From: Candidatus Dojkabacteria bacterium
GTDB lineage: Bacteria > Patescibacteriota > Dojkabacteria > SC72
Assembly: GCA_034002865.1 (NCBI GenBank)
Contig: JAVEZR010000001.1
Coordinates: 53,247-117,246 of the forward strand
Reading direction: 5' to 3'
DNA length: 64,000 nucleotides
Of this stretch, positions 19,153 through 62,868 are shown one piece after another (the stretch's first letter is position 1; each line of letters opens with the position of its first letter). The notes under the pieces were generated by a model. It did no database searches. It was not told where the DNA came from and worked only from the letters and a program-made list of their open reading frames with translations. The position numbers and the translations under genes are program-made.

Positions 19153-19376
19153 TATCCCTTAAAAGGGTTTGTTAATTGTAAAGCCTTCATTACCCTTGAT
19201 AGATTCTCATCCTTTATTGCCCTGGAGATGTCAGTTTTTACTCTACTTTTTTCTTCATACTTCTCTAAAAATAGAAGATCATTATTAACCTTCTCTTGAG
19301 ATAGCTGTTTTATATCCACAGCTTCTGTTACAAGATACTTCTTTAATTCTTCGTTACTGTTTTGATTTGTCATCAT
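19149..19376 (-). CDS. Small hypothetical protein (75 aa) that is the last gene of the VirB4 operon
   Basis: Charged, probably helical ORF that overlaps the 3' end of the VirB4-like gene (19354-19376), consistent with operon coupling. No motif. Confidence 0.3.
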   Translation of the reverse strand: MMTNQNSNEELKKYLVTEAVDIKQLSQEKVNNDLLFLEKYEEKSRVKTDISRAIKDENLSRVMKALQLTNPFKGY

Positions 19377-21759: not shown

Positions 21760-22384
21760 CTGGGTTATATATTGTATAAAACTCTGTTATTAACTCTTTA
21801 TTTGTAAGTTGATGTCCAAAGAGTCCCATTCTTCCTAACTGCTTTAGTAGATGATCTCTTTTTGGATAGAGGAAGATTTTAGATTTTTCTAGTAGTTGAT
21901 CCTGTTTCATTGCTAAGCTTCTCTCTATTTCTTCTCTTGTTTGTTTCGATTTTAAAAGAGATGAACCGGGAATCTCACCTGCAGGATTAAAGGGAATTAC
22001 TATTAAGAATGTTTTATCTAATACATCATTTTGAACTATTAAGTTCTGTATAAACTCGGTATATATATTTAACTGTCTTTTTAAACCCTCAGACATGGCT
22101 TCATTCTCCTGCTCTTCAAGGTAATCCACATAGTTAGAGATATCTATTCTCCTTGTTCTAATTAATATTTGGATATGGAAATTAAGGGAGTTTAGTAGTC
22201 CTGCAAAAGCATATATCTTACTATCCTGCTCATACTCTGCTAGTAAGTCAAAGTTAATAGCGGAGGTTTGAAGTACAAGAGCTACAGTACCAGTTTTTGT
22301 AATAACTAAATCATCAACTATCTCTCTTACTTCGAGATGATCCTGTGTAGATGAAGTTGTTCTTGCTCTTGCATTTATATCCAT
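21728..22384 (-). CDS. Hypothetical soluble protein (218 aa), translationally coupled to the flanking membrane-protein and VirB4 genes
   Basis: The stop overlaps the VirB4 start by 32 nt, and the start overlaps the stop of the upstream gene (ATGA). No TM and no recognisable motif. Confidence 0.5.
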   Translation of the reverse strand: MDINARARTTSSTQDHLEVREIVDDLVITKTGTVALVLQTSAINFDLLAEYEQDSKIYAFAGLLNSLNFHIQILIRTRRIDISNYVDYLEEQENEAMSEGLKRQLNIYTEFIQNLIVQNDVLDKTFLIVIPFNPAGEIPGSSLLKSKQTREEIERSLAMKQDQLLEKSKIFLYPKRDHLLKQLGRMGLFGHQLTNKELITEFYTIYNPDEELPKGEDE

Positions 22385-23220
22385 TACTTCAGTGTTATCT
22401 TCAAAGGTAATTTACTCTGATTAGATGATACAACTATTCTTAACTTTGGTGCTCCTGAGATTGGGCCTTCAAACTCTACTGTATATATTCCTTCTGGATA
22501 TATTTTATTAGTTAAGAAGTATCCATTAGGGCCAGTCTTATTAGCATACAGGATCTTACCATTAGAATCCTTAAGAAAGGCATTTATACCAGAGAGAGGT
22601 TGACTGTCTTTAGTACATAGCCAGATATTAATATTACCAGGTAGTTGATCTACACTTTTTATTGGAAATTGGAAGTTAGAGATATTTTCCTCTGAAATAG
22701 TGAGATACTCCTCTGTAGGAGTAATTACCTCTTCTGTTTCTTGCACTACCTGTGGTGTAGTCATAACTTCCTGTGTACTATCTCCTGCTAAGATATCATC
22801 TCCTGGATTCTCTTCAAAGATGTCTACCCTCTGTTTTTGTGTAATATCTGAAGCTCCTATTACCTTCTTCTTGCTTTCATCTACAGCATTAACCTGAGGT
22901 TTAATCCTTTGCTCTTTCATAGTTTGGTTTAACCATACTCTCTGTGTAGGCTTATTTATTGCAGAGAAGAAATTTATAATGGCTTTATCTGCAGGTAAAT
23001 CATTTATTGGTACAAGTGCTAAGAAAGCCCCTATACCTGAGAGTATTGCAAAGAGAGGTATACCAACAATGCCAGGTATATCTCCTCCGATAGAGAAGTA
23101 GAGGAAGATAGAGCCTGTACCTATACCTAAGGCTAAATATGCGAACTCTTTTAATGTAAACCTTGTGAAGAGTTTAAACTCGATATCTAATACATTTTGT
23201 GGAATAGGATGTTGTCTCAT
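22384..23220 (-). CDS. PrgI/VirB3-like membrane hairpin protein fused to a C-terminal extracytoplasmic beta-sandwich domain (carboxypeptidase-regulatory-like)
   Basis: The N-terminus (IPQNVLDIEFKLFTRFTLKEFAYLALGIGTGSIFLYF, then a second TM) resembles PrgI/TcpE/VirB3-family proteins encoded next to VirB4. The C-terminus (KDSNGKILYANKTGPNGYFLTNKIYPEGIYTVEFEGP) looks like a CarboxypepD_reg/Ig-like fold. Confidence 0.45.
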   Translation of the reverse strand: MRQHPIPQNVLDIEFKLFTRFTLKEFAYLALGIGTGSIFLYFSIGGDIPGIVGIPLFAILSGIGAFLALVPINDLPADKAIINFFSAINKPTQRVWLNQTMKEQRIKPQVNAVDESKKKVIGASDITQKQRVDIFEENPGDDILAGDSTQEVMTTPQVVQETEEVITPTEEYLTISEENISNFQFPIKSVDQLPGNINIWLCTKDSQPLSGINAFLKDSNGKILYANKTGPNGYFLTNKIYPEGIYTVEFEGPISGAPKLRIVVSSNQSKLPLKITLK

Positions 23221-50142: not shown

Positions 50143-50463
50143 ATGGAAACAATCCCCCCTTTATATTGGATGATAATTATTGCAATAGGAGTAGGCTTTA
50201 TCTGCTTCGTCCTATATGAATTTGCAATGCTAATTAAAGAGTCTAAGAATGCTGTAGCTGATTCAAGGAAGATTATTCAAGAAGCTGAGAAAACAGTGGA
50301 TATGGCTAATAAAATTGTAACAGAGGCAACAGAGATTGTAGGAGTTGTAAAAGGTACAGTCTATGAATTAAATAGTGCAATAATAAGGCCAGTGAGAAAG
50401 ATTTCATCATTGGTATCTGTAGCATCCGCATTTACTGAGGGTTTAACCTCTAAAAGAAAGTAG
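50143..50463 (+). CDS. Small single-pass membrane protein with a coiled-coil tail (first gene of the envelope operon)
   Basis: 106 aa. TM LYWMIIIAIGVGFICFVLYEFAML, then a heptad-like helical region. Confidence 0.4.
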   Translation: METIPPLYWMIIIAIGVGFICFVLYEFAMLIKESKNAVADSRKIIQEAEKTVDMANKIVTEATEIVGVVKGTVYELNSAIIRPVRKISSLVSVASAFTEGLTSKRK

Positions 50464-50504
50464 AAATCGTTGCTATTGCGTTTCTCTCTTTGTATGATGA
50501 ATAG

Positions 50505-52127
50505 ATGCATTTAACACCTTACCAAAAAAGACAGCTGAAGATTGTTGTTGCTTTAGTTATAGGCATACCATTAACAATATTTGCCGTATATCAAGGTATT
50601 CAGTATCTCTCCAAAGCAAGTGCAGATGTAACTCCTCAAGATGTTGTAATTACTAACCTAACAACTAACTCTCTTACAGTAACATGGTTTACGCAGAGTT
50701 CTGCAGATGGATATGTTGTTCCACTATTAAATGGAGTAGAGCAAAGTCCTGTTAGAGACAAAAGGGGGAGTGGCAAGAGAACATCCCACTATGTTGAATT
50801 AAGAAGTCTAGAGCCTAGTACTAAATATAGCTTTACGATAGTGTCAGGAGGTAGTAAGTATACGAATAGTAGTGGTATAAACTATGAGTTTACAACTGCA
50901 CCTGTTGGTACTGATACTCCAATTCCAAACCCTATACATGGTACTGTAACAGGGATTTCTAATGATGATGTTGTTGTGTATGTATTCCCTAAAAACAAAA
51001 GTACATATCCAGTATCTACAACAATCCCAAGCGGTGGTAACTGGATAGTAGATCTTTCTTCTTTGAGAAAGATATCTGACAAGAGTATGGTAAAGATTAC
51101 TGATGATACTGAGTTAGTATTAATGGCTAAAAATACTGCAAATAAAGGAGCAGTACTAGAGGGGTCATACTCATCTCTTTTTGATAGTAATGGGAAATTA
51201 AATAGAACACTCTCCTTAGCTATAGGAGAGCTTGGAGATCTCATTACACACTTTCCTGACGATTCGAAGTTAGGAACGAAAGCTGTAGTTACTACCAAAC
51301 CTACTCCAACTCCTACGCCGAAGCCTCCTACAACTCCTACTAAAGATCCTGATGAAGAAGATACCGATACAGTTGTAGATCGAGATTATCAAATAGTGCA
51401 TGATTTAAGATGGGTAGATATGGTTACTGGGCAGGCTACTAGTAACTTACAAAGTGGAGAGGGTACAGTACTGATTACAAACTTAACAGATGTAGGCTTT
51501 ACTGTTGTATGGAGATCTCCTCAGAAAGTAGATGGATATATAAAGTATGGAACAAGTAAGACATCTCTTACAGAAGAGGTTTGGGATGTTAGAGATGGTT
51601 TGTCCAATAGAGGTACATACTATGCTCACTCAGTAGAGAGTAAAAGGGTAGATCCCGATACTACATACTACTTTACAATATACTCTGGAGAGGATATCTA
51701 TAACAACTCGGGAAGTATGTACTCTGTTACAACTCTTCCTACTTTAAGTTCTCCTCCTCCCTTTGAAACTAGATCTGGTTCTCTTGGAGAAGTGTCTACT
51801 CCTGGTGATTGGATAGTAGTTGCTAAAATTGTAGATGACGATGAAGCAGGTACATTGGGTAGCTCTAAGTTAATGTCTACAATCCCAGATGATAATGGGT
51901 ATTGGATATTAACAGTAGGAGATACTAGAAGTGAGGATGGTAGTACATACTTCTCATTCTCTAATACAGATATACTTAATATATACTTCTTAGGAGCAAA
52001 GGAGAAGCTATTTGAATTCCCTATGTCTATCTCTGAGATTAGCTTAGATACCTCTTCTGTAGGTAGTGCTGTAGTAGAAAGTAGTGTTAAATTGCTTTCT
52101 GATTATGGAATAGTTAATATAAAGTGA
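50505..52127 (+). CDS. Secreted or anchored protein with two FN3/PAP-N-like domains in tandem-duplicated modules
   Basis: 540 aa with an N-terminal TM or signal. Module 1 is TNLTTNSLTVTWFTQSSADGYVV...TSHYVELRSLEPSTKYSFTIVSGGSKYTNSSG. Module 2 is TNLTDVGFTVVWRSPQKVDGYIKYG...YYAHSVESKRVDPDTTYYFTIYSGEDIYNNSG. A Thr/Pro-rich linker (KPTPTPTPKPPTTPTKDP) separates them. Confidence 0.5.
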   Translation: MHLTPYQKRQLKIVVALVIGIPLTIFAVYQGIQYLSKASADVTPQDVVITNLTTNSLTVTWFTQSSADGYVVPLLNGVEQSPVRDKRGSGKRTSHYVELRSLEPSTKYSFTIVSGGSKYTNSSGINYEFTTAPVGTDTPIPNPIHGTVTGISNDDVVVYVFPKNKSTYPVSTTIPSGGNWIVDLSSLRKISDKSMVKITDDTELVLMAKNTANKGAVLEGSYSSLFDSNGKLNRTLSLAIGELGDLITHFPDDSKLGTKAVVTTKPTPTPTPKPPTTPTKDPDEEDTDTVVDRDYQIVHDLRWVDMVTGQATSNLQSGEGTVLITNLTDVGFTVVWRSPQKVDGYIKYGTSKTSLTEEVWDVRDGLSNRGTYYAHSVESKRVDPDTTYYFTIYSGEDIYNNSGSMYSVTTLPTLSSPPPFETRSGSLGEVSTPGDWIVVAKIVDDDEAGTLGSSKLMSTIPDDNGYWILTVGDTRSEDGSTYFSFSNTDILNIYFLGAKEKLFEFPMSISEISLDTSSVGSAVVESSVKLLSDYGIVNIK

Positions 52128-52130
52128 GGT

Positions 52131-53504
52131 TTGTTAATTGTTTATAAATGCATTAGAATCATTTGCTTAATGGATATTAAAAGTACACTCTTAAAATTTA
52201 AACCCATATTCTTCTTACTACTAATGTCTTTTGTGACCTTTACTCTTGTATGGACAGTTAATCAGTTTAAAGATAGCTCTGAGTTTGTATCTGCCAAAGA
52301 GAACACTAAGGAGTTAAATTCTGTAGAAATAGTATCTCCTGTTTTAAATGAAAGTGATAGTGCAGTACCTGAGAAAGTGCAGGAGGATAACAAACCAATA
52401 GTGTTAAGTACAATAGCTTCTAGTGAATGCTCTGCATCGGTCATTAAGATAGACTCATACTCGGTTTGTACTAGAGGTGGCAGTGCAGAAATAGACTATA
52501 AAGATGGGTACAGATCGGGTACCTCTGTAAGTAAGAACTCAACCGTTGAACTAGTAGAGGTTAATATCCCTCTAGAGCTATTCTCAGGTTCTGGTGTAAA
52601 AGATTCGAATAGGAAAATTACAACAAAAACACCGATATATAAACCTGCAGGAGAACAGCTCGATCCTAAGGTCGCAAATGTAAAGCTACCTCCCGGTACT
52701 AATATAGTTGAGTATAAAAGCCCAGTAAAAGATAGACCTTTCTCTACACCATACACTACATCGATGGCAGATCAGGTATCAGAAGATGGTGAGGTGATTG
52801 TTGATAAGAAGATAATAAATAATTGTGAAGAGTGTAATAACCCTTCTAATGTGAATCCAGATAACTCAAATAAAAGCTCTGAATTTGTATATGAATCTCT
52901 GTATAAAGCACCCGGAGAAAAAGCTACCGCTAACACATCTAAAGCTATTGAGTCTTGTACTGAGGATGATCAATTTGTAGATTGGCCATCTCCAGCATCT
53001 AATAGAAAAGCATGTGCTACATCTCCTATAGCTGTTGCAGTAAAGCTTATACAGACATTCTCTGAAGCGATATGGAGCGAGTGTAATGGGATTTTGAAAT
53101 ACGATGCTAATGGTAATCCTATTCCTCCTAGCGATAATTGTATTCGTCCTGAAGATATTGTAATAAAGATGACATCGGCTTTTGGTTCGGACAGAGAGTG
53201 TCTTGATGGTGTGTGTACGAATGCATATATGAATACAAGAAATAAAGTAGCATTGATGCCTTCAGAGTCAGAGAAGTATTCAGATAAGGTATATTACACT
53301 ACAGATTGTAAGGTAATTATCGAAGGTAAGAGATATACTGTAAAGTGTGCATGGGATATGTCTCATCTATTTAAAGAAAGGAAGTTCTCGGAGTATGATG
53401 ATTTACCAGATATTGAGAAAACTCCTCCCAAAGAGGTTTATAAAGATTTTTTAACCAATGAAGCTACTAAGAGACAGTATGAGCCAGTAGTAAAAATATA
53501 TTAG
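52131..53504 (+). CDS. Cys-rich secreted or anchored hypothetical protein
   Basis: 457 aa. The probable start is the internal Met (MDIKSTLLKFKPIFFLLLMSF) with a TM anchor. More than 20 Cys in the extracytoplasmic part. No known motif. Confidence 0.45.
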   Translation: MLIVYKCIRIICLMDIKSTLLKFKPIFFLLLMSFVTFTLVWTVNQFKDSSEFVSAKENTKELNSVEIVSPVLNESDSAVPEKVQEDNKPIVLSTIASSECSASVIKIDSYSVCTRGGSAEIDYKDGYRSGTSVSKNSTVELVEVNIPLELFSGSGVKDSNRKITTKTPIYKPAGEQLDPKVANVKLPPGTNIVEYKSPVKDRPFSTPYTTSMADQVSEDGEVIVDKKIINNCEECNNPSNVNPDNSNKSSEFVYESLYKAPGEKATANTSKAIESCTEDDQFVDWPSPASNRKACATSPIAVAVKLIQTFSEAIWSECNGILKYDANGNPIPPSDNCIRPEDIVIKMTSAFGSDRECLDGVCTNAYMNTRNKVALMPSESEKYSDKVYYTTDCKVIIEGKRYTVKCAWDMSHLFKERKFSEYDDLPDIEKTPPKEVYKDFLTNEATKRQYEPVVKIY

Positions 53505-53526
53505 ATTAATTTATTAACAAACAACA

Positions 53527-55011
53527 ATGAGTATATCTCTTAAAGTATATGGTAGCGGTCTTAGGATAAAAAGATTCCTAGGCACTAAAACATTCCAGAG
53601 CTCTCTTATTGCTTTCTTGTCGGTATTGATGTTCTTTGGGACATTTAATATATATGCTCAAGAAGGTATTTCGCCTGAGTGGGAAGGTACAAAGAGGTTT
53701 CACAATATTATAAGTGGAACTGACGGAGAGGAAGATAATATGAACAGTATGCAAGGATTGGAAATTCTAAATTCCGGTTGGGCAATTTTCTCTATTATGG
53801 TACCAGAGGCTACTCAGAATGCAGATAAAGTACTGTCGGATTCAAAAATCCCTAATGACTTAAAAAGGGGAGTCCTTGGAATGGCTGAAGATGCTAGCTA
53901 TGCTGCGTATGCATCATACCCTTCAGTAGATGTGGGAAAACATTTAGCTCAACAGTGGGTACCTGGCTATCAAGAGAGCGTTACAAGCTTGTATGCACAG
54001 AGCTCTTCTGCAGGACATGAATCGGGATACTCTGAATTAATGGGAAGTGGAATAGTGAAGCTATGGAATAGGGTGTTAAATATTGCATATGTAGCATTTG
54101 TTGTAGTAATGATAGCTGCAGGCTTTATGATTATGTTTAGACATAAGCTTGGTGGTCAGACTATGGTAACCATAGGGAATGTATTACCAGGAGTTATTAC
54201 AGCCCTTATTATTGCTACATTCAGTTTCGCTATAGCAGGATTAATAATAGATTTCGGTGGGGTATTAACCTCTATTGTAGTGTTTATTCTAAAAGGGAGT
54301 TCGGATTTGAATATTCATAGTACATCTAACATATATACACTGATGATAGGGGCCTTTGGTAATGTACTCAATGATCTCGGGAAGCTGTCTCCTGTACATA
54401 CGGGAGTTGGAGTAATAGACAAAGTATTAGATCTCTCAGCTATAGTAATAGGTATAGTTGGAACCGTTGCAACAGTCGGTATTCCACTGTTAATTTTAGG
54501 ATTAATTACAGCCGGTGTTGTTTTTGTTGGGGCTGTGAAAGTTTTAATTGTCCTGTTCAAGGCATACTTTAATATCCTCCTAAATACAATTATTGGTCCT
54601 GTTCAGATTGCATTAAGTGCTTTGCCTGGAAATGGACACATGCTTCAAAATTGGTTTACAAGTATACTCAGAAATGTCTTAGTCTTTCCTTTGGTATTAG
54701 CAATAATAAATATACCAAATGCTATTGTTGCTGCTACGGATGGAGATTTTGATTTAAAACTCCCTGAGAAGCTAACATATGATCAGAATCAAGGTATTTT
54801 TGAAACTTTAGTTCCAAATCTTGGACTGAATATAGGAGGAGGTTTTGTAATGGTTCTCTTTAGAATCTTTATCCTTTATTTCGCAGCTCAAGCACCTAAA
54901 TTCCTTGAAGCGTGGTTACCACCTAATACTCCAAAGCCAGTTGGAGAGGCTATGGTGTCGGCGAAAGGTAGTCTATCTAAAGTTCCTTTGATTGGAACAC
55001 TATTTAAGTAG
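53527..55011 (+). CDS. Polytopic membrane protein (~7-8 TM) with a signal peptide and ~150-aa extracytoplasmic N-domain; VirB6/TrbL-like architecture
   Basis: 494 aa. Signal-like N-terminus (LIAFLSVLMFFGTFNIYAQE). Multiple Gly/Ile/Val-rich TM helices (e.g. VLDLSAIVIGIVGTVATVGIPLLILGLITAGVVFVGAVKVLIVLF). Resemblance to VirB6/ConG-type proteins rests on architecture only. Confidence 0.4.
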   Translation: MSISLKVYGSGLRIKRFLGTKTFQSSLIAFLSVLMFFGTFNIYAQEGISPEWEGTKRFHNIISGTDGEEDNMNSMQGLEILNSGWAIFSIMVPEATQNADKVLSDSKIPNDLKRGVLGMAEDASYAAYASYPSVDVGKHLAQQWVPGYQESVTSLYAQSSSAGHESGYSELMGSGIVKLWNRVLNIAYVAFVVVMIAAGFMIMFRHKLGGQTMVTIGNVLPGVITALIIATFSFAIAGLIIDFGGVLTSIVVFILKGSSDLNIHSTSNIYTLMIGAFGNVLNDLGKLSPVHTGVGVIDKVLDLSAIVIGIVGTVATVGIPLLILGLITAGVVFVGAVKVLIVLFKAYFNILLNTIIGPVQIALSALPGNGHMLQNWFTSILRNVLVFPLVLAIINIPNAIVAATDGDFDLKLPEKLTYDQNQGIFETLVPNLGLNIGGGFVMVLFRIFILYFAAQAPKFLEAWLPPNTPKPVGEAMVSAKGSLSKVPLIGTLFK

Positions 55012-55022
55012 TCCAATTCTTT

Positions 55023-57632
55023 ATGGCTAAGAAGTCTAAAACAGAAAACTTTGATGCTTTAGGTAGTGTATTTGATTTTCTCTTTACTGAGGCTAAGAAA
55101 CCACCAGATAAAAGGAAACCAATTAAACCTACAGGAGTAGCTGGAGATAGCGCACTTACTGACGCTTTGTTTTCATCTTTAGAGATGCCAGGAGCATTTG
55201 TAACAGATACCATTGTAGACGAATTTAACGGGGCAATAGATATTGAGTTGGGAAGGGTGAAATATGGAGAATACGGTAATGTAAAATTCACGACGACATC
55301 TTTAATTGATCTTTTGAAAGACCCTGAGAAAGCTTTCCAAAAAGCTGTTACTACTCAGAAGGCAATCCGAAAATCTCAGAGAGCGATGTTTCTTGGTGCT
55401 GCAATGGAAGATTTGGTTACCTCTGCATGGGCGCATAAGTACGGTAACCTCGAGGCAAGAGCTGCTATCTATGGTGCGTCCGTAGCTAATAGAGCAGAAA
55501 GTTACAAAATTGAAAGAGCTCTTGGGCAGTTTGGTGCATCACACAAGGAAGATGGAGTATCAAAGTTACAAGGTACTGGAGCTCCTGGGCGTTTCTCTCC
55601 AAAAGATTTAAACTTCATGGCCGATAGGTCAACTGATTTACTAGGCAGTAAGACGTTCGGTAGCAATTGGAATACATTGAGTGACTCGGATAAAGCGGAG
55701 TTTGCGAGCCAAGTAAGTGGAAAGAAAACTTCTGAGATACAGACATACTTAGCAAAGAAATATGGAACTACTATTCCAAGTGCAGCTACTAATTTTGGAG
55801 CAGCCGTTGGAAGTACAGAGAACGTAGATATCTTTAACGGTGCACTGTATAAGAAATTAGAAGGTGCTAATTTGCAAGATAAAATTGCGGATCCCTCAAC
55901 ATCTTCTGAAGAAAGAGAGATATACAAAAAAACATACTACTTATTACAAAGGGACAAAGTAACTCTTAATACTGCAATAAAGGATATTAAGGATAGATTA
56001 AAGAGAGCTACGTCTTCAGTAGATAAGGCAGTATTAGAGAAGGAGTTAAAAGAGACTAGAAATGTTCTAAGGATTGTACAAGGGCATGGTGTTTTCGGAA
56101 GAATTGGTCAAATTGAAGGATATTATAACTCTCTAAACAATATTTATGGAGGAGTATTAGGTTCTAATTTCGCTGCTAGTGTGTTAAATGGAAAACTTTA
56201 TGATAAAAACCAAAATTCCTTATTCTTACCTGTAAGTGAGGCTAAGGTAGGTGGCGTGGATATCTTAGTTGCAAAGGATAGTCCTTACAAGTTACTAGGT
56301 AAGTATAACCAAGTCATGACCGATATATACTATCTTACACCTAGATCATTGGCTCGTAATTTCTATAATGGCGAAGGTTTTGCATACCTTTTACATAAGA
56401 AATTGATAAATATAACTAAGCTTCCTGCTTTTTCAAAACTTTCTAGCTTAGGAATAGATAAAAAAACATTATTAGAAGGATTTAATAGTAAAGACATAGA
56501 TACTTTTATTAATGATTTATTGAAAAAATCTTCAGGTATATTGAATGCTAAAGAGTTAGAAAAACTTGAAAAGTTTCTACAGTCATCAAAAACTCTTAAA
56601 AAATTAGCTCATAGATTTAGTTTTGTCTCTAGAGTTCAAGAATCTTTGAATAAGGCACTTGGAGAGCAACTAAAGAAATTCCGTACTGAGATTAAAGATT
56701 GGATATTGAAAAATCCTAAGGTTCTCGCTTGGTTTACAAAAGTAGGTGCCGATAAGTTACTAAAACAGTGGGCTCTTAAAGGAGGAATCGATGTTTTAAT
56801 AAAATCTCTTCTAAGTGCAATAGCCAGTGCATTAGGACTAAGTATGGGCCCTGTAGTTAGTGCTATTGTAGGAGGATTAACGATGATTGTATCAGGTGTT
56901 GTAATGAAAGTACTAGGCGTTGGATTGAATATGCTGAAGTGGGCTGCAATAGGTGCATTCGCTATCCTACTTATTATCCCTACATTAGGTTACGGTTCTT
57001 TAATTAGTTATAATCAAAAGAATTTATCATATAAGTTGGAAACCCCAGGATCAATAATTCAATGCACAGTATATCAAGAAACAGAGCTTGAAGAGGGAGA
57101 TACCCCTTGGGGAGACACAATTATACCTCCTCCATCTGGAGAAAGCTGTATATTTGGAGCAGGAAGCTTTGGATGTTCACAAGGATACAATGATGTAGAT
57201 GGCTGGACCCATCAGAGAACCTCACATCTAATGCCTGTAGACTTAACATCCGTAGGATATATATATGCTCCTCAATTTTGTAGTACAGGGAATTGTAGTA
57301 TTACAAGAATTGCAATGATTAACTGTAGTGATGGATCTAATGCTGGAGGTATAGTTGAATTAACTGCTACAAGTGGAGGTACTACTTACTTCTTTAAACT
57401 ACTACATGTAAAACCTTTGGCAGGATTAGGTGAGAAGCTCTCAGGAGGGCAGGCTGTTGCAGTAGTTCAAGAATCTCCAGAGGTAGAGAAAGGATGGTGT
57501 TGGACAGGTAAGCATTTACACTTAGAAACAAGACAGAATGGTGCAGTAGTAGATCCTTTGGAATTACTACAAAGTTTTAGCTGTGGAGTACCTGATGAGT
57601 CCAGTTGTAGTAGGCCAAAACCTAAGTTATAA
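55023..57632 (+). CDS. Membrane protein with a ~570-aa cytoplasmic N-domain, 2-3 TM helices and a C-terminal extracytoplasmic Cys-rich M23 (LytM-type) peptidase domain
   Basis: 869 aa with no signal peptide. TM block LSAIASALGLSMGPVVSAIVGGLTMIVSGVVMKVLGVGLNMLKWAAIGAFAILLIIPTL. The C-terminal domain has M23 motifs HxxxD (SHLMPVD) and HxH (GKHLHLETRQNGAVVDP). Confidence 0.6.
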   Translation: MAKKSKTENFDALGSVFDFLFTEAKKPPDKRKPIKPTGVAGDSALTDALFSSLEMPGAFVTDTIVDEFNGAIDIELGRVKYGEYGNVKFTTTSLIDLLKDPEKAFQKAVTTQKAIRKSQRAMFLGAAMEDLVTSAWAHKYGNLEARAAIYGASVANRAESYKIERALGQFGASHKEDGVSKLQGTGAPGRFSPKDLNFMADRSTDLLGSKTFGSNWNTLSDSDKAEFASQVSGKKTSEIQTYLAKKYGTTIPSAATNFGAAVGSTENVDIFNGALYKKLEGANLQDKIADPSTSSEEREIYKKTYYLLQRDKVTLNTAIKDIKDRLKRATSSVDKAVLEKELKETRNVLRIVQGHGVFGRIGQIEGYYNSLNNIYGGVLGSNFAASVLNGKLYDKNQNSLFLPVSEAKVGGVDILVAKDSPYKLLGKYNQVMTDIYYLTPRSLARNFYNGEGFAYLLHKKLINITKLPAFSKLSSLGIDKKTLLEGFNSKDIDTFINDLLKKSSGILNAKELEKLEKFLQSSKTLKKLAHRFSFVSRVQESLNKALGEQLKKFRTEIKDWILKNPKVLAWFTKVGADKLLKQWALKGGIDVLIKSLLSAIASALGLSMGPVVSAIVGGLTMIVSGVVMKVLGVGLNMLKWAAIGAFAILLIIPTLGYGSLISYNQKNLSYKLETPGSIIQCTVYQETELEEGDTPWGDTIIPPPSGESCIFGAGSFGCSQGYNDVDGWTHQRTSHLMPVDLTSVGYIYAPQFCSTGNCSITRIAMINCSDGSNAGGIVELTATSGGTTYFFKLLHVKPLAGLGEKLSGGQAVAVVQESPEVEKGWCWTGKHLHLETRQNGAVVDPLELLQSFSCGVPDESSCSRPKPKL

Positions 57633-57644
57633 AACTAAGATATA

Positions 57645-58616
57645 ATGAAAATACAGGGAAGTAGAAAGAATGCCTTCTATATTCTAATAGCCTTTATAAT
57701 TATCATCTCAGTAGTACTTCTAATAGTGCTAAACTCCCTTTATGCTAAACAGTATCCAGAGGAACCAATTAAGATGAAGAACCTTGGTAAAAGTACTCAA
57801 ACAATTGATATATCTTCCTTAAGTAAAAAGATTGAACAGGAAGATATCCCTGTATATTTTGTACACCCAAGATTACATATCTCAAATGTAGAGGAGATGA
57901 TTGATAAAATGGGTTTGTCATTAAAAAGAGAAGATATAGTTAAAGATAGCTATATCCAATGGAGTGATGGGGAAAATAGCTTCACATATGACTCTGTACA
58001 AGACACAGTATCGTTTCAATTAACAAGAAGGATATCATTAGAAAGAGGGGTAGAAGCTTTTAAGAATGTATTTCAAAAGTACCTAGGTATCCAACACGAT
58101 TATGTTTTAATTAAAGAGAGAAAGAACAACGATGGAGGAGTAACTTACTACGCTTCTCGTACCTTAGATGGTATTCCTGTTCAGTTTGGTGCTAACTATG
58201 AATACTCTGAGATTTTAAAATTTAACAAGGAGGGAGTTTTAGAATCAGGACAGTTACTATTAGCAGAGTTTGAGAAGTATGATCTATATGTTCCAACCAT
58301 TACCAATGATGAGTTAAAAGCGTATATAAATGCAAAAGATTATCCTAAAGAGCACTATATAGATAGCTCTGTATTAACAGAGACATTAGATCTTAACTAT
58401 CTTGATGAAGCCTGGGGAGAAATAGAGGGCACATTGGAGGAGTGTAAGGCTCAAGATTTTGAAAATATCTTTCTTTACAAAAATAGTAATCAAGGATACC
58501 TTTTACCCGTAGTAAAGATATCTGCTAATTGTAATGTTACTAGTAAAGCCACTGTATATACCGTACCCGTAACTTTCTATGTTAATGGAGTTAGCCCCGA
58601 TTATGTGACTTTGTAA
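57645..58616 (+). CDS. Hypothetical membrane-anchored extracytoplasmic protein
   Basis: 323 aa with an N-terminal TM (FYILIAFIIIISVVLLIVL). No motif. Confidence 0.4.
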   Translation: MKIQGSRKNAFYILIAFIIIISVVLLIVLNSLYAKQYPEEPIKMKNLGKSTQTIDISSLSKKIEQEDIPVYFVHPRLHISNVEEMIDKMGLSLKREDIVKDSYIQWSDGENSFTYDSVQDTVSFQLTRRISLERGVEAFKNVFQKYLGIQHDYVLIKERKNNDGGVTYYASRTLDGIPVQFGANYEYSEILKFNKEGVLESGQLLLAEFEKYDLYVPTITNDELKAYINAKDYPKEHYIDSSVLTETLDLNYLDEAWGEIEGTLEECKAQDFENIFLYKNSNQGYLLPVVKISANCNVTSKATVYTVPVTFYVNGVSPDYVTL

Positions 58617-58623
58617 GCATCTT

Positions 58624-59829
58624 TTGTGGTACAATATTGAAATGAAAATATTCAGATTATTTACAATTCTCTTTGTTACACAACTCTTCTTCTTACTTCT
58701 TGGTAGTACTACTTACGCTATGGATATTACTACCAGAGAAGATCTTAAATTAGATAGTACTCTCTCAGAAGAGGAGTCACTCTTTACACAACCTCAGAAG
58801 ATATATATTACTCAGGTAAAAAGTTTAAACAAAGAGCTTAAGAATGATAGTCGTGCATGGGTAAGGTCAATATATTACTACAGTATTACAAGGTTAAAAT
58901 TAAATGATATACCTTACAACTATCTTGTAGATAGTAGTGGAAATGTATTTGAAGGAACAAGGGGTGGAGCTGGAGCAAATCCAGGCCTACAGGGAGGAGA
59001 TAACGTTGTACTTATAGGGATACTAGATAGTGATTCAACATTAACACCTAGAGCTCAAAGCTCCCTTGTAGAGTTAGTTGAAACTCTTTCATATAAGTAT
59101 GGGATAAAGGAAGGCTCTTGGGATTTTGTAGATTTACAGATTGCTATGAATGAGGGAGAGAGATCATATCTTACATATACGTCATCTAGTAGCTCTGTAT
59201 CGCAAACTATAACCCAAACAATGTCTTCTGTACGTTGGTCAGCAGAGGAGCATTTAGAGTACAAGGCAAGTATAGTAGATGTTGAATATCCAAAAGAGAT
59301 AGAGGTAGGTAAGCAGTTACCAGTGAAGGTTACAATTAAAAATGAGAATGATTTTACTTGGTTTAGTGATACTAAGTATATCTATATCTCTACTGCAGAT
59401 TCCTCTGAGAGTCCATATGCTATTAACTCTGCATGGGAGAGTTTTAGTAGGCCTACATATATTAAAGAGAAATATGTAAAACCTGGAGATAGTGTAGAGG
59501 TACAGTTTAATATGCTAGGTAAGAGCAAACCTGGGGAGTATAAAGAGGAGTTTATTTTTGTTAAGGATAGTGCTTCCCAATTTAAAGATTCAAACTTTGA
59601 AGTAACTTTTAATATCATTGCTGGAGAGTATAAGCTTGTAGAAGTAGTATCTCCACAGTATGGATTTGTAAATATTCGTGAATGTAGATGGTATAGCTGT
59701 GCAAAGATAGAGGTAGCAAATGATGGAGACGTCTTTATTATGAACAAGAAAGAGGAGGGATGGTATGAAATTTACTACAACGAAGGGAATTTAGGTTGGG
59801 TATCCCAAACCTATATGAAAGAGCTATAG
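58624..59829 (+). CDS. Secreted PGRP/amidase_2-like peptidoglycan-binding protein with a C-terminal SH3b-like domain; the zinc ligands appear to be missing
   Basis: Signal peptide. PGRP-like core (IPYNYLVDSSGNVFEGTRGGAGANPGLQGGDNVVLIGIL vs PGRP DIGYNFLIGGDGxVYEGRGW...GAHA...NxxSIGI). The expected His and Cys ligands are not evident. The C-terminus (EGWYEIYYNEGNLGWVSQTYM) is SH3b-like. Confidence 0.5.
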   Translation: MWYNIEMKIFRLFTILFVTQLFFLLLGSTTYAMDITTREDLKLDSTLSEEESLFTQPQKIYITQVKSLNKELKNDSRAWVRSIYYYSITRLKLNDIPYNYLVDSSGNVFEGTRGGAGANPGLQGGDNVVLIGILDSDSTLTPRAQSSLVELVETLSYKYGIKEGSWDFVDLQIAMNEGERSYLTYTSSSSSVSQTITQTMSSVRWSAEEHLEYKASIVDVEYPKEIEVGKQLPVKVTIKNENDFTWFSDTKYIYISTADSSESPYAINSAWESFSRPTYIKEKYVKPGDSVEVQFNMLGKSKPGEYKEEFIFVKDSASQFKDSNFEVTFNIIAGEYKLVEVVSPQYGFVNIRECRWYSCAKIEVANDGDVFIMNKKEEGWYEIYYNEGNLGWVSQTYMKEL

Positions 59830-59914: not shown

Positions 59915-61924
59915 GTGGCACCTCAAGATATAATTCTCGGAAAACTAAATCCACAGCAAAGAATTGCAGTGGAAACAACAGAGGGACCTTTGCTCGTATT
60001 CGCAGGGGCTGGATCAGGTAAAACAAGAGTTATTACCAACAGAATAGCCTACCTAATTACAGAGAAAAAGGTTTCTCCCGAGAACATCCTGGCAGTAACA
60101 TTCACTAAAAAAGCAGCAGGAGAAATGCAAGAAAGGGTAGTAGGACTTCTTAAGGAGTTAAATGTCAATGCAAAGAAACCTCCACTTATTGGAACTTTCC
60201 ATTCAATAGGTGCACTCTTCCTTAGGGAGAATTCTAAAGAGGTAGGATTAACTCCCAACTTCTCTATCTATGACAGTGCAGATTCTGAGAACTTAGTAAA
60301 AGATATACTTGTTGAACAGGGTATTGATATAAAACAGATTAGGCCTAAGGCTATCTCTTACTTCATATCCTCTGCAAAGAATGAAATGGTTTCCCCTGAG
60401 AACTTTAGAAATCACTACGGTGGCTTTATAGAGGATATTGTTGCAGATATATATCCTTTGTATCAAAAACAGCTATTAGCACAAAATTCTGTTGATTTTG
60501 GAGATCTCCTATATCTAGCAGTGAAACTACTTTCAGAGAAGAAAGATGTTCTTTCTAGATATCAAGAGTATTACAGATATATGATGATTGATGAGTATCA
60601 AGATACTAACAATGCACAGTATATGTTTGCCAAATTACTCTCTGAGAAGTATAAAAATATATGTGTAGTAGGTGATGATGATCAGGGTATATATGCATGG
60701 AGAGGTGCTGATATTAAAAATATTCAATCTTTTGAAAAAGATTTTGAGAATGTAAAAACAGTTAAGTTGGAACAGAATTATAGATCTAGTGCTAATGTAA
60801 TAGATGCTGCTACTGCTGTTATTAAACAGAATTACTCTAGAGTAGAGAAGGCCCTTTGGACAGAGAAAGAGTCAGGAGAGAGTATTACTGTATATCAATC
60901 ATTAGATCAAGATGATGAAGCTCAGTATGTGATGGATGAGATAGAGAATCTGAAGAGAAAGGGAGAAAAGCTCTCTAATATGGCAGTACTGTATCGAACT
61001 AACTATCAATCTCGTGTAATTGAGGAGGCTCTCTTAAAGAGAGGTTTGCCTTATAAATTGGTAGGAGGTTTTAGATTCTATGAGAGAAAAGAGGTAAAAG
61101 ATATTCTTAGCTATATGAGGTTTATACATAATATTAAAGATGAGTTAAGCCTTTCAAGAATATTAAATACACCTACAAGGAAAGTAGGTCCTAAGTCAGT
61201 GGCAACACTGCATGAAATTGCAAAATCATGTGAATGCTCTGTAGGAGAATTACTGGTAGCCACATATGAGATTGAGAATAGTATAGAGAGAAGATTAAAA
61301 ATATCCCCTCAGAGATATTCTAAAATAGAGGAAAAGATCTCTTTAATGGGTAAGTATACAAACTTAGTAAATATCTTTGGGGAAATATATACTGACTCAC
61401 AAGGGGAAGATGCTCTTACTGTAATAGACATTATTCTAAGAAAAATTAAGTATATACAGTGGATGGATGATGGTTCAGAGGCTGCAGAGTACAAGAAAGA
61501 GAATATAGAGGAGCTAAAGAATGTTGCCAGCAGTTATGCCCAGAAACATGGAGATAAATCTTTAGACGTACTCTTACAAGAGATAAATCTTTTAGAACAG
61601 GAACAGGATAAAAATCAAGATGGTAGTGGTAACTATGTTAACCTTATGACTTTACACTCTTCTAAAGGTTTAGAATTTGAAAATGTCTTCATTATTGGTA
61701 TGGAGGAAGGGATACTTCCACACTCTAGATCTTTCACTGATGAAGATGGCTTGGAAGAGGAAAGAAGGCTTTGCTATGTAGGTATTACAAGAGCAAGAGA
61801 GAAGCTGTATTTAACATTCGCAGATAAAAGGCAGGGAAGAGAAGGATATAATACTCAGATACCATCTAGATTCTTAGGAGAGATACCTCAAGATATTTGT
61901 GAATATTACAGTTGGCAAACTTAG
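59915..61924 (+). CDS. uvrD: ATP-dependent DNA helicase UvrD/PcrA family
   Basis: GTG start. LNPQQRIAVETTEGPLLVFAGAGSGKTRVITNRIAYLI (motifs Q and I), DEYQDTN (II), VGDDDQGIYAWRGA (III), and the C-terminal VGITRAREKLYLT (VI). 669 aa. Confidence 0.9.
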   Translation: MAPQDIILGKLNPQQRIAVETTEGPLLVFAGAGSGKTRVITNRIAYLITEKKVSPENILAVTFTKKAAGEMQERVVGLLKELNVNAKKPPLIGTFHSIGALFLRENSKEVGLTPNFSIYDSADSENLVKDILVEQGIDIKQIRPKAISYFISSAKNEMVSPENFRNHYGGFIEDIVADIYPLYQKQLLAQNSVDFGDLLYLAVKLLSEKKDVLSRYQEYYRYMMIDEYQDTNNAQYMFAKLLSEKYKNICVVGDDDQGIYAWRGADIKNIQSFEKDFENVKTVKLEQNYRSSANVIDAATAVIKQNYSRVEKALWTEKESGESITVYQSLDQDDEAQYVMDEIENLKRKGEKLSNMAVLYRTNYQSRVIEEALLKRGLPYKLVGGFRFYERKEVKDILSYMRFIHNIKDELSLSRILNTPTRKVGPKSVATLHEIAKSCECSVGELLVATYEIENSIERRLKISPQRYSKIEEKISLMGKYTNLVNIFGEIYTDSQGEDALTVIDIILRKIKYIQWMDDGSEAAEYKKENIEELKNVASSYAQKHGDKSLDVLLQEINLLEQEQDKNQDGSGNYVNLMTLHSSKGLEFENVFIIGMEEGILPHSRSFTDEDGLEEERRLCYVGITRAREKLYLTFADKRQGREGYNTQIPSRFLGEIPQDICEYYSWQT

Positions 61925-62868
61925 TTAATACCGTATGTTCTAACATATTTAGCATGACATGCAGGCCATTGGCTTCTTCTAGTAGATTCTCCAGCTCTAT
62001 ATTTAAAAATAGTGTTCCTTATCTGTGCATGACCATCAAAGATATTCTCTGAGAACTGTTTACGCCATGTAGTAGGACTCCATTGGAAAAGACCTTTGTA
62101 AGTACCTTTATTTGACTCTGCATTACATCCTGATTCACAGTACATTATAGATTTTAACCATCTTCTCTCTTCCTCGTTATACGGTCCTGAATCTACAACT
62201 GAGTACCAGTAATCACAGTTATACCCCTTAGGATCAATTCCTGCTAATGAGTAAAGTGATGTTCCTACCTCTAACACTTTGGTGACAGGCTCTTTAGCTA
62301 TACTCTCTGAAAGCAATGTACTTTCTACTAATTTACCATCCTCATAGTAGGTAAGCACTCTCTCCTTTTTAATACCTAATACTCCCTCCTGTGTAATATA
62401 CTCTTCACCTTTAAGGTACTTGTCTGTTTTAATTACATTCACATCAAATGGTATATCAGAAACAATCTCTTCAATTACAGATTCTGTTTTAATAACTCTA
62501 ACTAAGCTACCATTTGTAACATATTCAGAGCTTAGAATAATCCTATACTCTCCATCTAGGTATATCTTGTACTGATCTAATATCTTGTAAATATCTGTTT
62601 CTACAGTAAAGATTTTGTATACATACTCTCCCTTCTTAATATGAAGTAACTTTGGTCTTCTAGAGCTTCTTTCTAATTCACTATCTGTACCATATACTAT
62701 CTCCTTTATATCAATATCTTGTGAGTCAGTAGAACTACTTTGTGCTAACACAAGATTGTTATGAGAGTTATATGAAAAGAAAAGAATTAAAAGGAAGGTA
62801 ACAACTAGAGCAATTGTAAATCCTTTATATCTAATAGAAGGTCGTCGATTTGTACTGTTTGTATACAT
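61921..62868 (-). CDS. Rpf-like (resuscitation-promoting-factor type) transglycosylase with a G5 domain and N-terminal TM
   Basis: N-terminal TM. A G5-like segment (VIKTDKYLKGEEYITQEGVLGIKKERVLTYYEDGKLVE). A C-terminal transglycosylase-like motif (WLKSIMYCESGCNAESNKGTYKGLFQWSPTTW, cf. Rpf ECESGGNW...GLYQFS..TW). Confidence 0.6.
   Translation of the reverse strand: MYTNSTNRRPSIRYKGFTIALVVTFLLILFFSYNSHNNLVLAQSSSTDSQDIDIKEIVYGTDSELERSSRRPKLLHIKKGEYVYKIFTVETDIYKILDQYKIYLDGEYRIILSSEYVTNGSLVRVIKTESVIEEIVSDIPFDVNVIKTDKYLKGEEYITQEGVLGIKKERVLTYYEDGKLVESTLLSESIAKEPVTKVLEVGTSLYSLAGIDPKGYNCDYWYSVVDSGPYNEEERRWLKSIMYCESGCNAESNKGTYKGLFQWSPTTWRKQFSENIFDGHAQIRNTIFKYRAGESTRRSQWPACHAKYVRTYGIN

Follow-up and report, generated by a model that had tools for sequence, protein, structure and literature searches.

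The gene designated g5 (55023..57632, + strand), located in the window (the whole stretch of 64,000 nucleotides that was analysed), encodes an 869-aa protein in which an N-domain, a membrane block, a linker and an M23 ectodomain follow one another, and this protein may serve as the catalytic subunit, tethered to the membrane, of an envelope complex that comprises seven proteins and is specific to Dojkabacteria, a proposal whose chances are considered to be evenly balanced. The delineation of g5 is based on its open reading frame, its homologues and family alignments. The frame runs from ATG to stop and spans the 869 aa given in the earlier note; its product is 100% identical to a hypothetical protein deposited from a Candidatus Dojkabacteria MAG, and a protein search retrieved 45 homologues besides. 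A clear Shine-Dalgarno sequence is absent upstream of the ATG; despite this, the start is, judging by sequence, fixed by the conserved N-terminus. The N-domain family is narrow (206 clusters among 1.84 billion proteins), with the N-domain always N-terminal, and g5 searched as a single sequence had no match among PDB sequences.

The protein is divided by a hydrophobic block (aa 587-664; 56781..57014, +), which was analysed by hydropathy, hydrophobic moments and modelling and is read as crossing the membrane once or three times. The block is continuous over 78 aa, is the sole such block in g5 by hydropathy, and comprises two amphipathic helices (588-608 and 610-632) followed by a plain TM helix (640-662), the hydrophobic moments of the three being 1.01, 1.08 and 0.07, respectively. 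In the AF2 model, it forms helices 589-603 and 610-667, the latter being one long helix of low confidence; the family alignment shows conservation of the loop, bearing Lys, that connects segments 2 and 3. The protein had been described earlier as bitopic with two to three TM helices: a hydrophobic block does precede the M23 domain, but it fits either one TM helix preceded by two amphipathic helices or three passes, and an even (two-pass) reading would place the M23 domain inside. For one pass or three passes alike, we infer from sequence an N-in/C-out topology because of the charge difference (net +23 for the N-domain versus -9 for the C-domain), the distribution of Cys and the requirement that the M23 domain be outside. 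Nine Cys lie within aa 681-862 and none within aa 1-665 of g5, and across the family the N-domain holds 0-1 Cys versus 3-24 in the C-domain. Taken alone, the lack of Cys in the N-domain (0 observed versus 3.4 expected from the window background, P(0) about 0.03) is weak evidence for topology. The architecture proposed earlier, i.e., an inside domain, a membrane block and then an outside hydrolase, is supported, with no export signal ahead of the block.

The N-domain (aa 1-586; 55023..56780, +) is predicted to be cytoplasmic on the grounds that it has no export signal, is basic (pI 9.5, net +23) and is devoid of Cys. Within aa 1-580, the highest 19-residue Kyte-Doolittle mean is 1.27, below what a signal peptide or TM helix would require. 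The domain is all-alpha apart from two small beta hairpins, and of the enrichment in K, E, S and G previously ascribed to it, only that of K (11.6%) stands, Lys being the sole standout residue. Searches of the N-domain against Pfam, NCBIfam, PHROG, PDB sequences and PDB folds gave no match, its profile drew only coiled-coil noise (aa 270-380) from PDB sequences, and no relative was present in 2.9 million IMG/VR viral contigs; the description of a large N-terminal region without known fold thus agrees with the PDB fold and sequence searches. Two stretches of the domain are especially well conserved. The N-terminal motif (aa 1-60, MAKK..DALGSVFDFLFTEAKKPPDKRKPIKPTG..LEMPGAF; 55023..55202, +), in which an amphipathic helix precedes a basic/Pro-rich stretch, includes the best conserved stretch of the whole protein (aa 11-35, lowest column entropy), is modelled with low pLDDT and a helix at 9-24, and is carried by g5 alone within the window; it is a candidate for docking a cytoplasmic partner. 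The second best conserved stretch is the core motif (aa 436-455, YYLTPRSLARNFYNGEGFAY; 56328..56387, +), of which Y437, P440, G450, E451 and F453 are invariant across 31 sequences in the family alignment.

The ectodomain (aa ~701-862; 57123..57608, +) is assigned to the M23/LytM type from its fold and its candidate metal/catalytic residues (H730, D740, H795, H831 and H833). Modelling and structure matching reveal the LytM/M23 beta-sheet fold, the closest structural match of this head being the phage endopeptidase LysTt72 (8s3m), on which a literature search gave no match. The own PF01551 (M23) match of g5 (18.2 bits, E = 0.0029) lies below the gathering score of 28.7 bits; the g5 family profile hits PDB M23 chains at E = 3.4e-6, and several relatives carry PF01551, with one head scoring 67.9 bits. 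The HxH motif that the earlier note had recognised at GKHLHLE is confirmed as H831-L-H833 in TGKHLHLE, invariant in 41 sequences. In the same 41 sequences, H795 (in FKLLHV) and D740 are invariant and H730 is near-invariant. H795 aligns (HMMER) to the corresponding His of M23 chains and is taken by us to be the second catalytic His, at the position of LytM H260; D740 belongs to the PVDL strand, at the place of GxD in M23 enzymes. The HxxxD reported earlier at SHLMPVD proved to be a misreading, as the sequence is H735-x4-D740 (HxxxxD) with no His at -4 from D740, H735 is not conserved (e.g., TSNMPVD in the relative P0006) and the conserved His is H730. The spacing of H730 to D740 is H-x9-D in g5 and H-x6-D in more distant subgroups; thus, whereas canonical M23 enzymes (LytM, lysostaphin, ShyA/MepM, LysTt72) place the His 4 residues upstream of the Asp, the distance is 10 in g5 and 7 in the other subgroups. 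The head is further set apart from these enzymes by eight conserved Cys (709, 718, 753, 758, 768, 826, 854 and 862). The conservation of eight of the nine Cys positions in family alignments fits disulfides in an extracytoplasmic domain, in line with the earlier suggestion that the Cys-rich M23 region implies disulfides (or metal sites). Furthermore, M23/LytM enzymes are usually secreted or N-terminally anchored, whereas the head of g5 is C-terminal, behind a 586-aa domain predicted to be cytoplasmic. As MurJ, encoded in the window, indicates, the organism makes peptidoglycan; the head would act as a zinc endopeptidase with about four disulfides, cutting the peptide cross-links of this polymer.

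g5 is the fifth gene of a seven-gene operon of envelope proteins, and a signal peptide or TM helix is present in each of the seven products. The operon occupies a site extending from rsmE/rsmB to pcrA, which is the same in relatives down to 24% identity; there are no phage genes around it, its housekeeping flanks are fixed, and the operon does not represent a phage or mobile element. The first gene, g1 (50143..50463, +), encodes 106 aa with an N-terminal TM helix (hydropathy) and a coiled coil and is kept at the operon start in all operons examined. It is followed by g2 (50505..52127, +), a membrane-anchored protein (TM helix aa 9-33) bearing a Pro/Thr linker and two fn3/purple-acid-phosphatase-N-like domains (Pfam PF16656 at 2.5e-11, fn3 at 3.4e-8), and by g3 (52131..53504, +), which hydropathy and orthologues mark as membrane-anchored, its ectodomain being rich in Cys (14 residues); g3 probably starts at the ATG at 52170, and its orthologues measure 427-449 aa. 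Hydropathy describes g4 (53527..55011, +; 494 aa) as polytopic, with a signal peptide and about 7-8 TM helices. Conservation within the operon is highest for g4; its 309 homologues (44-71% identical) yielded no Pfam domain, and the g4 profile found no relative in the PDB. Downstream of g5 and g6, g7 (58624..59829, +) encodes a secreted protein that combines a PGRP/amidase_2-like domain with a C-terminal SH3b domain, as indicated by weak Pfam matches (Amidase_2 and SH3_3) and by its profile against the PDB (PGRP E = 3.5e-4, SH3b E = 2.4e-4); its orthologues begin MKI.., and the gene probably starts at the ATG at 58642. Pfam, NCBIfam and PHROG searches gave nothing consistent for the N-domain, g3, g4 and g6, and the seven proteins have no PHROG match beyond a weak peptidase one. 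A promoter/terminator scan of the operon performed no better than on shuffled sequence, and no description of the operon was found in the accessible parts of papers mentioning Dojkabacteria.

The outside module varies among the relatives of g5, being M23, an HExxH domain or C39-like (C39_2), or having a CHAP or VanY module added, and the head swaps occurred in situ, in orthologous operons, where a lysozyme-like head is also among those exchanged. The replacement heads retain catalytic-type motifs or families (HExxH motif, CHAP, VanY), the profile of the HExxH head gave nothing significant against the PDB, and in one pair of operons the heads are 82% identical with N-domains only 40% identical. 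Directly downstream of g5 lies g6 (57645..58616, +), which encodes 323 aa comprising an N-terminal TM helix and, by fold match, a YycI/YycH/YpeB-like (PepSY-type) ectodomain. Across six operons, which amount to 15 non-independent pairs, the divergence of g6 tracks that of the g5 ectodomain (Pearson 0.96, and again 0.96 after removing pcrA divergence), versus r = 0.26 for the g5 N-domain. Between M23-type and HExxH-type operons, g6 is 20-25% identical, compared with 42-67% for the other genes. From these sequence comparisons, g6 looks like the putative cognate partner of the hydrolase module. PepSY-type membrane proteins reportedly govern wall enzymes, YpeB keeping SleB inactive (bioRxiv 10.64898/2026.06.01.729290) and CopD controlling PBPs (PMC10653890). 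By analogy, the g5-g6 pairing fits a hold-inactive or regulatory role: as in SleB-YpeB and YycH/YycI, a wall hydrolase gene precedes an anchored YycI/YycH/YpeB-like gene, and here the two co-evolve. Unlike SleB, a soluble lytic transglycosylase, the hydrolase of these operons is a peptidase, of M23 or HExxH type, that forms one protein with an anchor and a cytoplasmic domain; unlike the YycH/YycI pair, which regulates WalK, the g5-g6 operon has no histidine kinase.

The earlier note had wall cleavage regulated or energised from the cytoplasm. Energising finds no counterpart in the sequence, as g5 lacks both a Walker A motif and a nucleotide-binding domain, no Walker motif occurs anywhere in the operon, none of the seven proteins has an ATPase domain (ABC or other), and no ATPase lies in or adjoining the operon in the relatives examined. 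That the hydrolase is controlled stays plausible; what speaks for regulation, however, lies with a PepSY-type partner that is extracellular and co-evolves with it, the cytoplasmic domain being a putative scaffold. As in the FtsEX-EnvC/PcsB/CwlO/RipC systems, an outside wall hydrolase is coupled to a cytoplasmic component, and varied hydrolase types are mounted on one chassis from lineage to lineage. Unlike those systems, the g5 operon has no ABC ATPase/permease, and the coupling is by covalent fusion in one polypeptide.

In the proposed working of the complex, the cytoplasmic N-domain would be a scaffold rather than a motor, positioning the head and not energising it, and the aa 11-35 peptide together with the aa 436-455 core motif would dock a cytoplasmic partner deciding where and when the wall opens. 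g6 would bind the hydrolase head and hold it inactive or direct it, as YpeB does for SleB. Because only ~35 residues link the head to the membrane, the cell's own wall, in its innermost layer, would be the most likely target. Such opening may serve growth or division, or may let the rest of the complex (polytopic g4 and extracellular g2, g3 and g7) span the wall. The own wall is preferred as target over a host wall mainly on account of the short tether and the core-genome position of the operon; effector-immunity cassettes also swap a head together with its cognate partner, hence this reading is only a preference.

The host-directed alternative, in which g5 is a weapon or access tool of an episymbiont whose head, released or presented at the contact site, breaches the host wall, with g6 being immunity-like and shielding the producer, is considered unlikely. 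It would account for the exchange of chemically different heads together with a partner that diverges alongside them, a pattern also seen in effector-immunity cassettes, and the 82% head versus 40% N-domain identity is compatible with cassette exchange. The operon neighbours carry adhesion or wall-binding domains (fn3, SH3b, PGRP-like), and the epibiont life of cultivated CPR bacteria (PMC12102498, PMC10633639) also counts in its favour. However, the head is tethered to the membrane of its producer by only ~35 residues with no obvious cleavage site, the operon is fixed between housekeeping genes in all relatives rather than placed in a variable region, and it has no secretion ATPase; moreover, the lifestyle of Dojkabacteria is not established.

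It is likewise unlikely that g5 is the wall-opening (VirB1/PrgK-like) component of a Patescibacteria type IV secretion system (T4SS), with the operon supplying the envelope parts missing beside virB4 (a very divergent VirB6 in the form of g4, the hydrolase in that of g5, and surface parts in g2 and g3). The window does encode a VirB4-like ATPase (19354..21759, -; PF19044 at 1.3e-29) and a PrgI/VirB3-like gene, with neither a VirB6 nor a hydrolase adjoining the pair, and the top Pfam family among g4 relatives is TrbL/VirB6, though weak (2/25 members, E = 0.0017). The g5 family also shares modular hydrolase heads with PrgK and TraG. In some Patescibacteria classes VirB6 is scarce and presumably divergent, and VirB1-type hydrolases usually do not adjoin virB4 (PMC12102498), both of which count for a T4SS role. 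Against this, some 30 kb with about 28 genes separate the operon from virB4, which is encoded on the opposite strand, and the fold of g6 is YycI/PepSY-like rather than VirB8/NTF2-like. The hhalign probabilities against pCF10 (g5-PrgK 0.1%, g4-PrgH 0.3%, g6-PrgL 0.6%), all <1%, led to the rejection of kinship with PrgK, PrgH and PrgL, of which PrgH is the VirB6 counterpart and PrgL the VirB8 counterpart; likeness to PrgH or PrgL is thus absent from the neighbours of g5. The resemblance to the LytM domain of PrgK is common to every M23 domain. PrgK-type enzymes have no large cytoplasmic domain; PrgK itself has a short N-terminal anchor with all its domains outside, whereas g5 has 586 aa without export signal ahead of its membrane block. 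Therefore, the comparison drawn in the earlier note with T4SS hydrolases such as PrgK and TraG fails as kinship, g5 being unrelated in sequence to PrgK (pCF10) and lying outside a T4SS cluster, in contrast to PrgK, TraG (pIP501), TcpG and CwlT.

A non-catalytic LytM regulator or adaptor like EnvC, NlpD, SpoIIQ or SpoIVFA, activating or docking another enzyme, is very improbable, even though the HxxxD spacing is non-canonical and the PGRP/amidase_2-like g7, two genes downstream, offers a possible client. The residues typically lost by degenerate LytM factors are all kept in g5 (D740, H795, H831 and H833 invariant, H730 nearly so, in 41 sequences), and the catalytic-type motifs of the replacement modules are likewise at odds with an adaptor. 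SpoIIQ and SpoIVFA have short cytoplasmic parts and often degenerate LytM domains, whereas g5 has 586 cytoplasmic aa and conserved catalytic residues. Finally, a domesticated phage tape-measure/tail-lysin protein like T5 Pb2, which the layout (long helical region, hydrophobic segments, C-terminal M23, as in tape-measure proteins with M23 heads) and the structural match to the phage endopeptidase LysTt72 might suggest, has a negligible probability, since phage origin was rejected by the PHROG and IMG/VR searches (no PHROG match beyond the weak peptidase one, no N-domain relative in IMG/VR) and the housekeeping context is fixed.

The reading of g5 as the tethered catalytic subunit of an envelope complex bears on envelope building, division and host interaction in CPR/Patescibacteria, whose lineage-specific genes mostly lack an assigned function. 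Throughout an entire class-level lineage, the operon is fixed in the core genome; it centres on an enzyme of guessable chemistry joined to a 586-aa domain that resembles nothing known. The in-situ swapping of heads with a co-evolving partner constitutes a natural experiment on keeping wall hydrolases safe, and testable units are at hand in the form of an expressible head, a predicted cognate inhibitor or regulator (g6) and a 25-residue conserved peptide with an expected cytoplasmic partner. More tentatively, and on balance doubtfully, the operon may specify an undescribed Dojkabacteria trans-envelope machine, in which a novel, cytoplasmic helical domain is covalently coupled to swappable heads, each with its own PepSY-like safety catch in a cassette system akin to effector-immunity pairs, for use at a symbiont-host interface or as a wall conduit in host-dependent uptake. 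If it is true that the complex acts on hosts, it would represent a new kind of symbiont-host interface.

A hypothetical protein deposited from a Candidatus Dojkabacteria MAG has the same sequence as the product of reading frame g5 (55023..57632, + strand, 869 codons from ATG to stop), and there are 45 further full-length homologues (identity 24-61%, mostly 860-930 aa). The protein is rated as a putative membrane-anchored, regulated peptidoglycan hydrolase, comprising an N-domain (aa 1-586), a membrane block and a C-terminal head. The surrounding window is low in G+C (33-39%) and otherwise holds housekeeping genes such as those for NusA, IF-2, PNPase, PcrA, GroEL, MurJ and LepA. Presence of the lipid II flippase MurJ (3034..4803, + strand; PF03023 at 2.1e-63) implies that the organism makes its own peptidoglycan.

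Within aa 1-580, no 19-residue stretch is hydrophobic enough for a signal peptide or a transmembrane (TM) helix, and a single continuous hydrophobic block occupies aa 587-664. Its first two segments (588-608 and 610-632) are amphipathic, with a hydrophobic moment of about 1.0, and are joined by a loop that is short and uncharged across the family; a second loop with a conserved Lys leads to a plain hydrophobic third segment (640-662, moment 0.07). Judged from sequence, these loops would fit either three passes (in-out-in-out) or two interfacial helices and one pass, and either model would make the protein N-in/C-out. With pI 9.5 and a net charge of +23 the N-domain is basic; the acidic C-domain has pI 4.9 and a net charge of -9. 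All nine Cys lie in the C-domain, with none in the N-domain and membrane block; over 158 full-length family members, the corresponding counts are 3-24 versus 0-1.

The head belongs to the M23 family but is divergent, and its first-ligand spacing is non-canonical. This assignment holds despite a sub-threshold Pfam M23 score (18.2 versus 28.7 bits), because a profile of 14 C-domains matches PDB M23 chains (LysTt72 and StM23, E = 3.4e-6; ShyA, LytM and SpoIIQ next), the AF2 model of the C-terminal region has pLDDT 85-94 and Foldseek relates the head to LysTt72, LytM and beta-lytic protease (probability 0.97-1.0). Among 41 M23-bearing relatives, the invariant positions are D740, H795, H831, H833 and five Cys, and H730 and another three Cys come close to invariance. 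The HxH motif proposed in the earlier note was therefore correctly placed (H831/H833), but its 'HxxxD at SHLMPVD' was a misreading, as the spacing there is H735-x4-D740 and close relatives have other residues in place of H735. The ectodomain has only five His (H730, H735, H795, H831 and H833), and the conserved one near the Asp is H730, ten residues ahead of it in g5 and seven in more distant subgroups, making it a candidate first zinc ligand at non-canonical spacing. The eight conserved Cys could form four disulfides, as would suit an extracytoplasmic domain.

Instead of M23, 4 of the 30 aligned relatives have an unrelated, Cys-rich domain whose HExxHxxQ...EWGAD motif is invariant; Pfam and PDB gave no relative for this domain. 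The 158 full-length members comprise 101 with the M23-type HxH, 37 with HExxH, one with both motifs and 19 with neither, and several carry extra modules. Pfam recognises M23 with VanY, CHAP, Peptidase_C39_2 and canonical M23 (67.9 bits) among these members, and one close relative has CHAP in addition; every recognisable module is of a peptidoglycan-peptidase type. As the operon and its locus are the same for HExxH-type genes, heads were swapped in place while the chassis of N-domain and membrane block stayed constant. The HExxH ectodomain (about 190 aa; L059 11083..11664, L060 9287..9868 and L061 11026..11607 among the relatives' loci) takes the place of M23 in roughly one family member in four. 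Its carriers include proteins P0031-P0034 and P0044, with the motif HExxHxxQ...(R)EWGAD..SNNGGGY, and it may constitute a new zincin-type wall peptidase family. Between the window and the relative locus L001 (10001..12649), the head is 82% identical, PcrA 83% and the N-domain only 40%; one reading is that the exposed catalytic domain is far slower to evolve than the putatively cytoplasmic one, and the other is an exchange of the head (and of g6, 60%) between lineages.

The chassis is without known relative. Pfam searches of 12 N-domain members gave no family matched by more than one member, NCBIfam and PHROGs gave no match, a PDB sequence search returned only coiled-coil noise (aa 270-380) and Foldseek probabilities were all below 0.1. 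The AF2 model of the N-domain shows helices throughout apart from two small hairpins; pLDDT is 75-90 over aa 200-560 and lower over aa 1-190. Searched against 1.84 billion cluster representatives, the N-domain profile matched no more than 206 proteins at E <= 1e-3; in all of the best 150 of these the domain is N-terminal, and most are 830-1400 aa long. One-genome-per-species collections contain 53 loci, essentially one copy per genome, on contigs titled Dojkabacteria, WS6 or 'uncultured Ca. Saccharibacteria' (ENA third-party bins). The last title applies to many species-representative MAGs among L009-L058, and looks loosely assigned, since at least one such bin (CAZPFV01, L059) has complete Dojkabacteria synteny around its g5-type gene. 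Three short contigs in bins named Gammaproteobacteria, Prolixibacteraceae and Clostridia probably reflect mis-binning. Conservation within g5 peaks at two stretches of the N-domain, aa 11-35 (DALGSVFDFLFTEAKKPPDKRKPIK) and aa 436-455 (YYLTPRSLARNFYNGEGFAY), which surpass even the catalytic HLHLE. Such stretches within otherwise fast-evolving sequence (40% identity where PcrA has 83%) and the absence of a Walker A motif from g5 suggest that the domain is a scaffold with a few docking points, and neither an enzyme nor a motor.

The gene is the fifth of seven tightly spaced ones (g1-g7; 50143 to 59829, gaps 3-41 nt), each encoding a product with a signal peptide or TM helix and none an ATPase: a small TM and coiled-coil protein (g1), a membrane-anchored protein with two fn3/PAP-N-like domains (g2), a membrane-anchored Cys-rich protein (g3), a polytopic membrane protein (g4), an N-terminally anchored 323-aa protein (g6) and a secreted PGRP/amidase_2-like protein with SH3b (g7). 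The TTG codons listed as starts of g3 (52131..53504) and g7 (58624..59829) probably lie upstream of the true ones; comparison with the lengths and N-termini of orthologues favours ATG at 52170 (about 444 aa) and 58642 (395 aa), respectively. The seven-gene order between rsmB/rsmE and pcrA is identical around homologues of 48, 31, 29 and 24% identity, and both order and placement recur around three HExxH-type members. With order and site constant across relatives, g1-g7 is a core chromosomal operon and not a mobile element. Additions to the seven genes occur at L003 (920..5190), L004 (126..956) and one further locus: some operons have an additional 950-1034-aa PAP-N/fn3-type protein upstream of g1, and one lineage carries a KilA-N-domain gene, on the opposite strand, between g1 and g2. 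After pcrA, all relatives have a G5-domain protein (about 310 aa, PF07501; window 61921..62868, - strand), followed in relatives by a TPR protein, EF-G and EF-Tu. G5 domains are known from wall-associated proteins, and this gene may be a further wall-related neighbour. Cassette-like head swapping and the adhesion and wall-binding character of the operon neighbours would suit a host-directed tool with g6 as its immunity protein; this is unlikely, considering the short tether of the head and the core-genome position of the operon.

The fold of g6 matches YycI (10.5), YycH (8.6), the PepSY-containing C-terminal part of YpeB (8.3) and protease propeptides (6.6-7.1), with no VirB8/NTF2 or ring-building proteins in this comparison. 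YycH and YycI control WalK. Over six operons, g6 identity tracks head identity (Pearson 0.96, Spearman 0.80; Pearson still 0.96 once PcrA divergence is removed) and not that of the N-domain (0.26) or g4 (0.17), a large effect in a small sample whose 15 pairs are not independent. Between M23-type and HExxH-type operons, g6 drops to 20-25%, whereas g1-g4 and g7 stay at 42-67%. Control of wall enzymes has been reported for PepSY-type membrane proteins, YpeB keeping SleB inactive (bioRxiv 10.64898/2026.06.01.729290) and CopD controlling PBPs (PMC10653890). Accordingly, g6 is read as a putative cognate regulator or inhibitor of the head.

Assignment of g5 and its operon to a type IV secretion system (T4SS) draws on genes about 30 kb upstream: a VirB4/TraC-like ATPase (801 aa, 19354..21759, - strand; PF19044 at 1.3e-29) and a PrgI/VirB3-like gene (278 aa, 22384..23220, - strand; PF12666 at 3.8e-5, below threshold), with a 218-aa ORF between them (21728..22384, - strand) and no VirB6, VirB8 or hydrolase gene beside them. 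The stretch 19354..23220 (- strand) is a minimal monoderm-type T4SS core. Weak TrbL matches of g4 relatives, and the divergent or missing VirB6 and unlinked VirB1 reported in Patescibacteria (PMC12102498), count in the same direction. Nevertheless, profile comparisons with PrgK, PrgH and PrgL were negative, g6 does not resemble VirB8 and virB4 is not linked to the operon, leaving the assignment rather improbable. A degenerate LytM regulator is highly improbable given the conserved catalytic residues of the head, and a phage tail protein was rejected; no N-domain relative was found in IMG/VR viral contigs and, apart from a weak peptidase match, no operon protein matches phage families.

For the regulated hydrolase, an N-in/C-out topology would expose the head as a disulfide-stabilised zinc endopeptidase cutting peptide cross-links. 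A tether of only about 35 residues (aa 665-700, modelled as disordered) would point to the innermost layer of the wall of the producer itself as its target. The head may be gated by g6, with the cytoplasmic scaffold and the conserved N-terminal peptide setting placement or timing, and cutting might serve growth or division, or open the wall for other members of the putative complex. PrgK-type T4SS hydrolases, FtsEX-coupled hydrolases and SleB-YpeB are the nearest concepts, but each fails at least one defining feature. To our knowledge, no described wall hydrolase fuses a cytoplasmic domain of about 590 aa to interchangeable heads in one polypeptide. That g1-g7 represents a new kind of envelope machine is a tentative possibility; the architecture of g5 is solid and lineage-wide, in an uncultured group.
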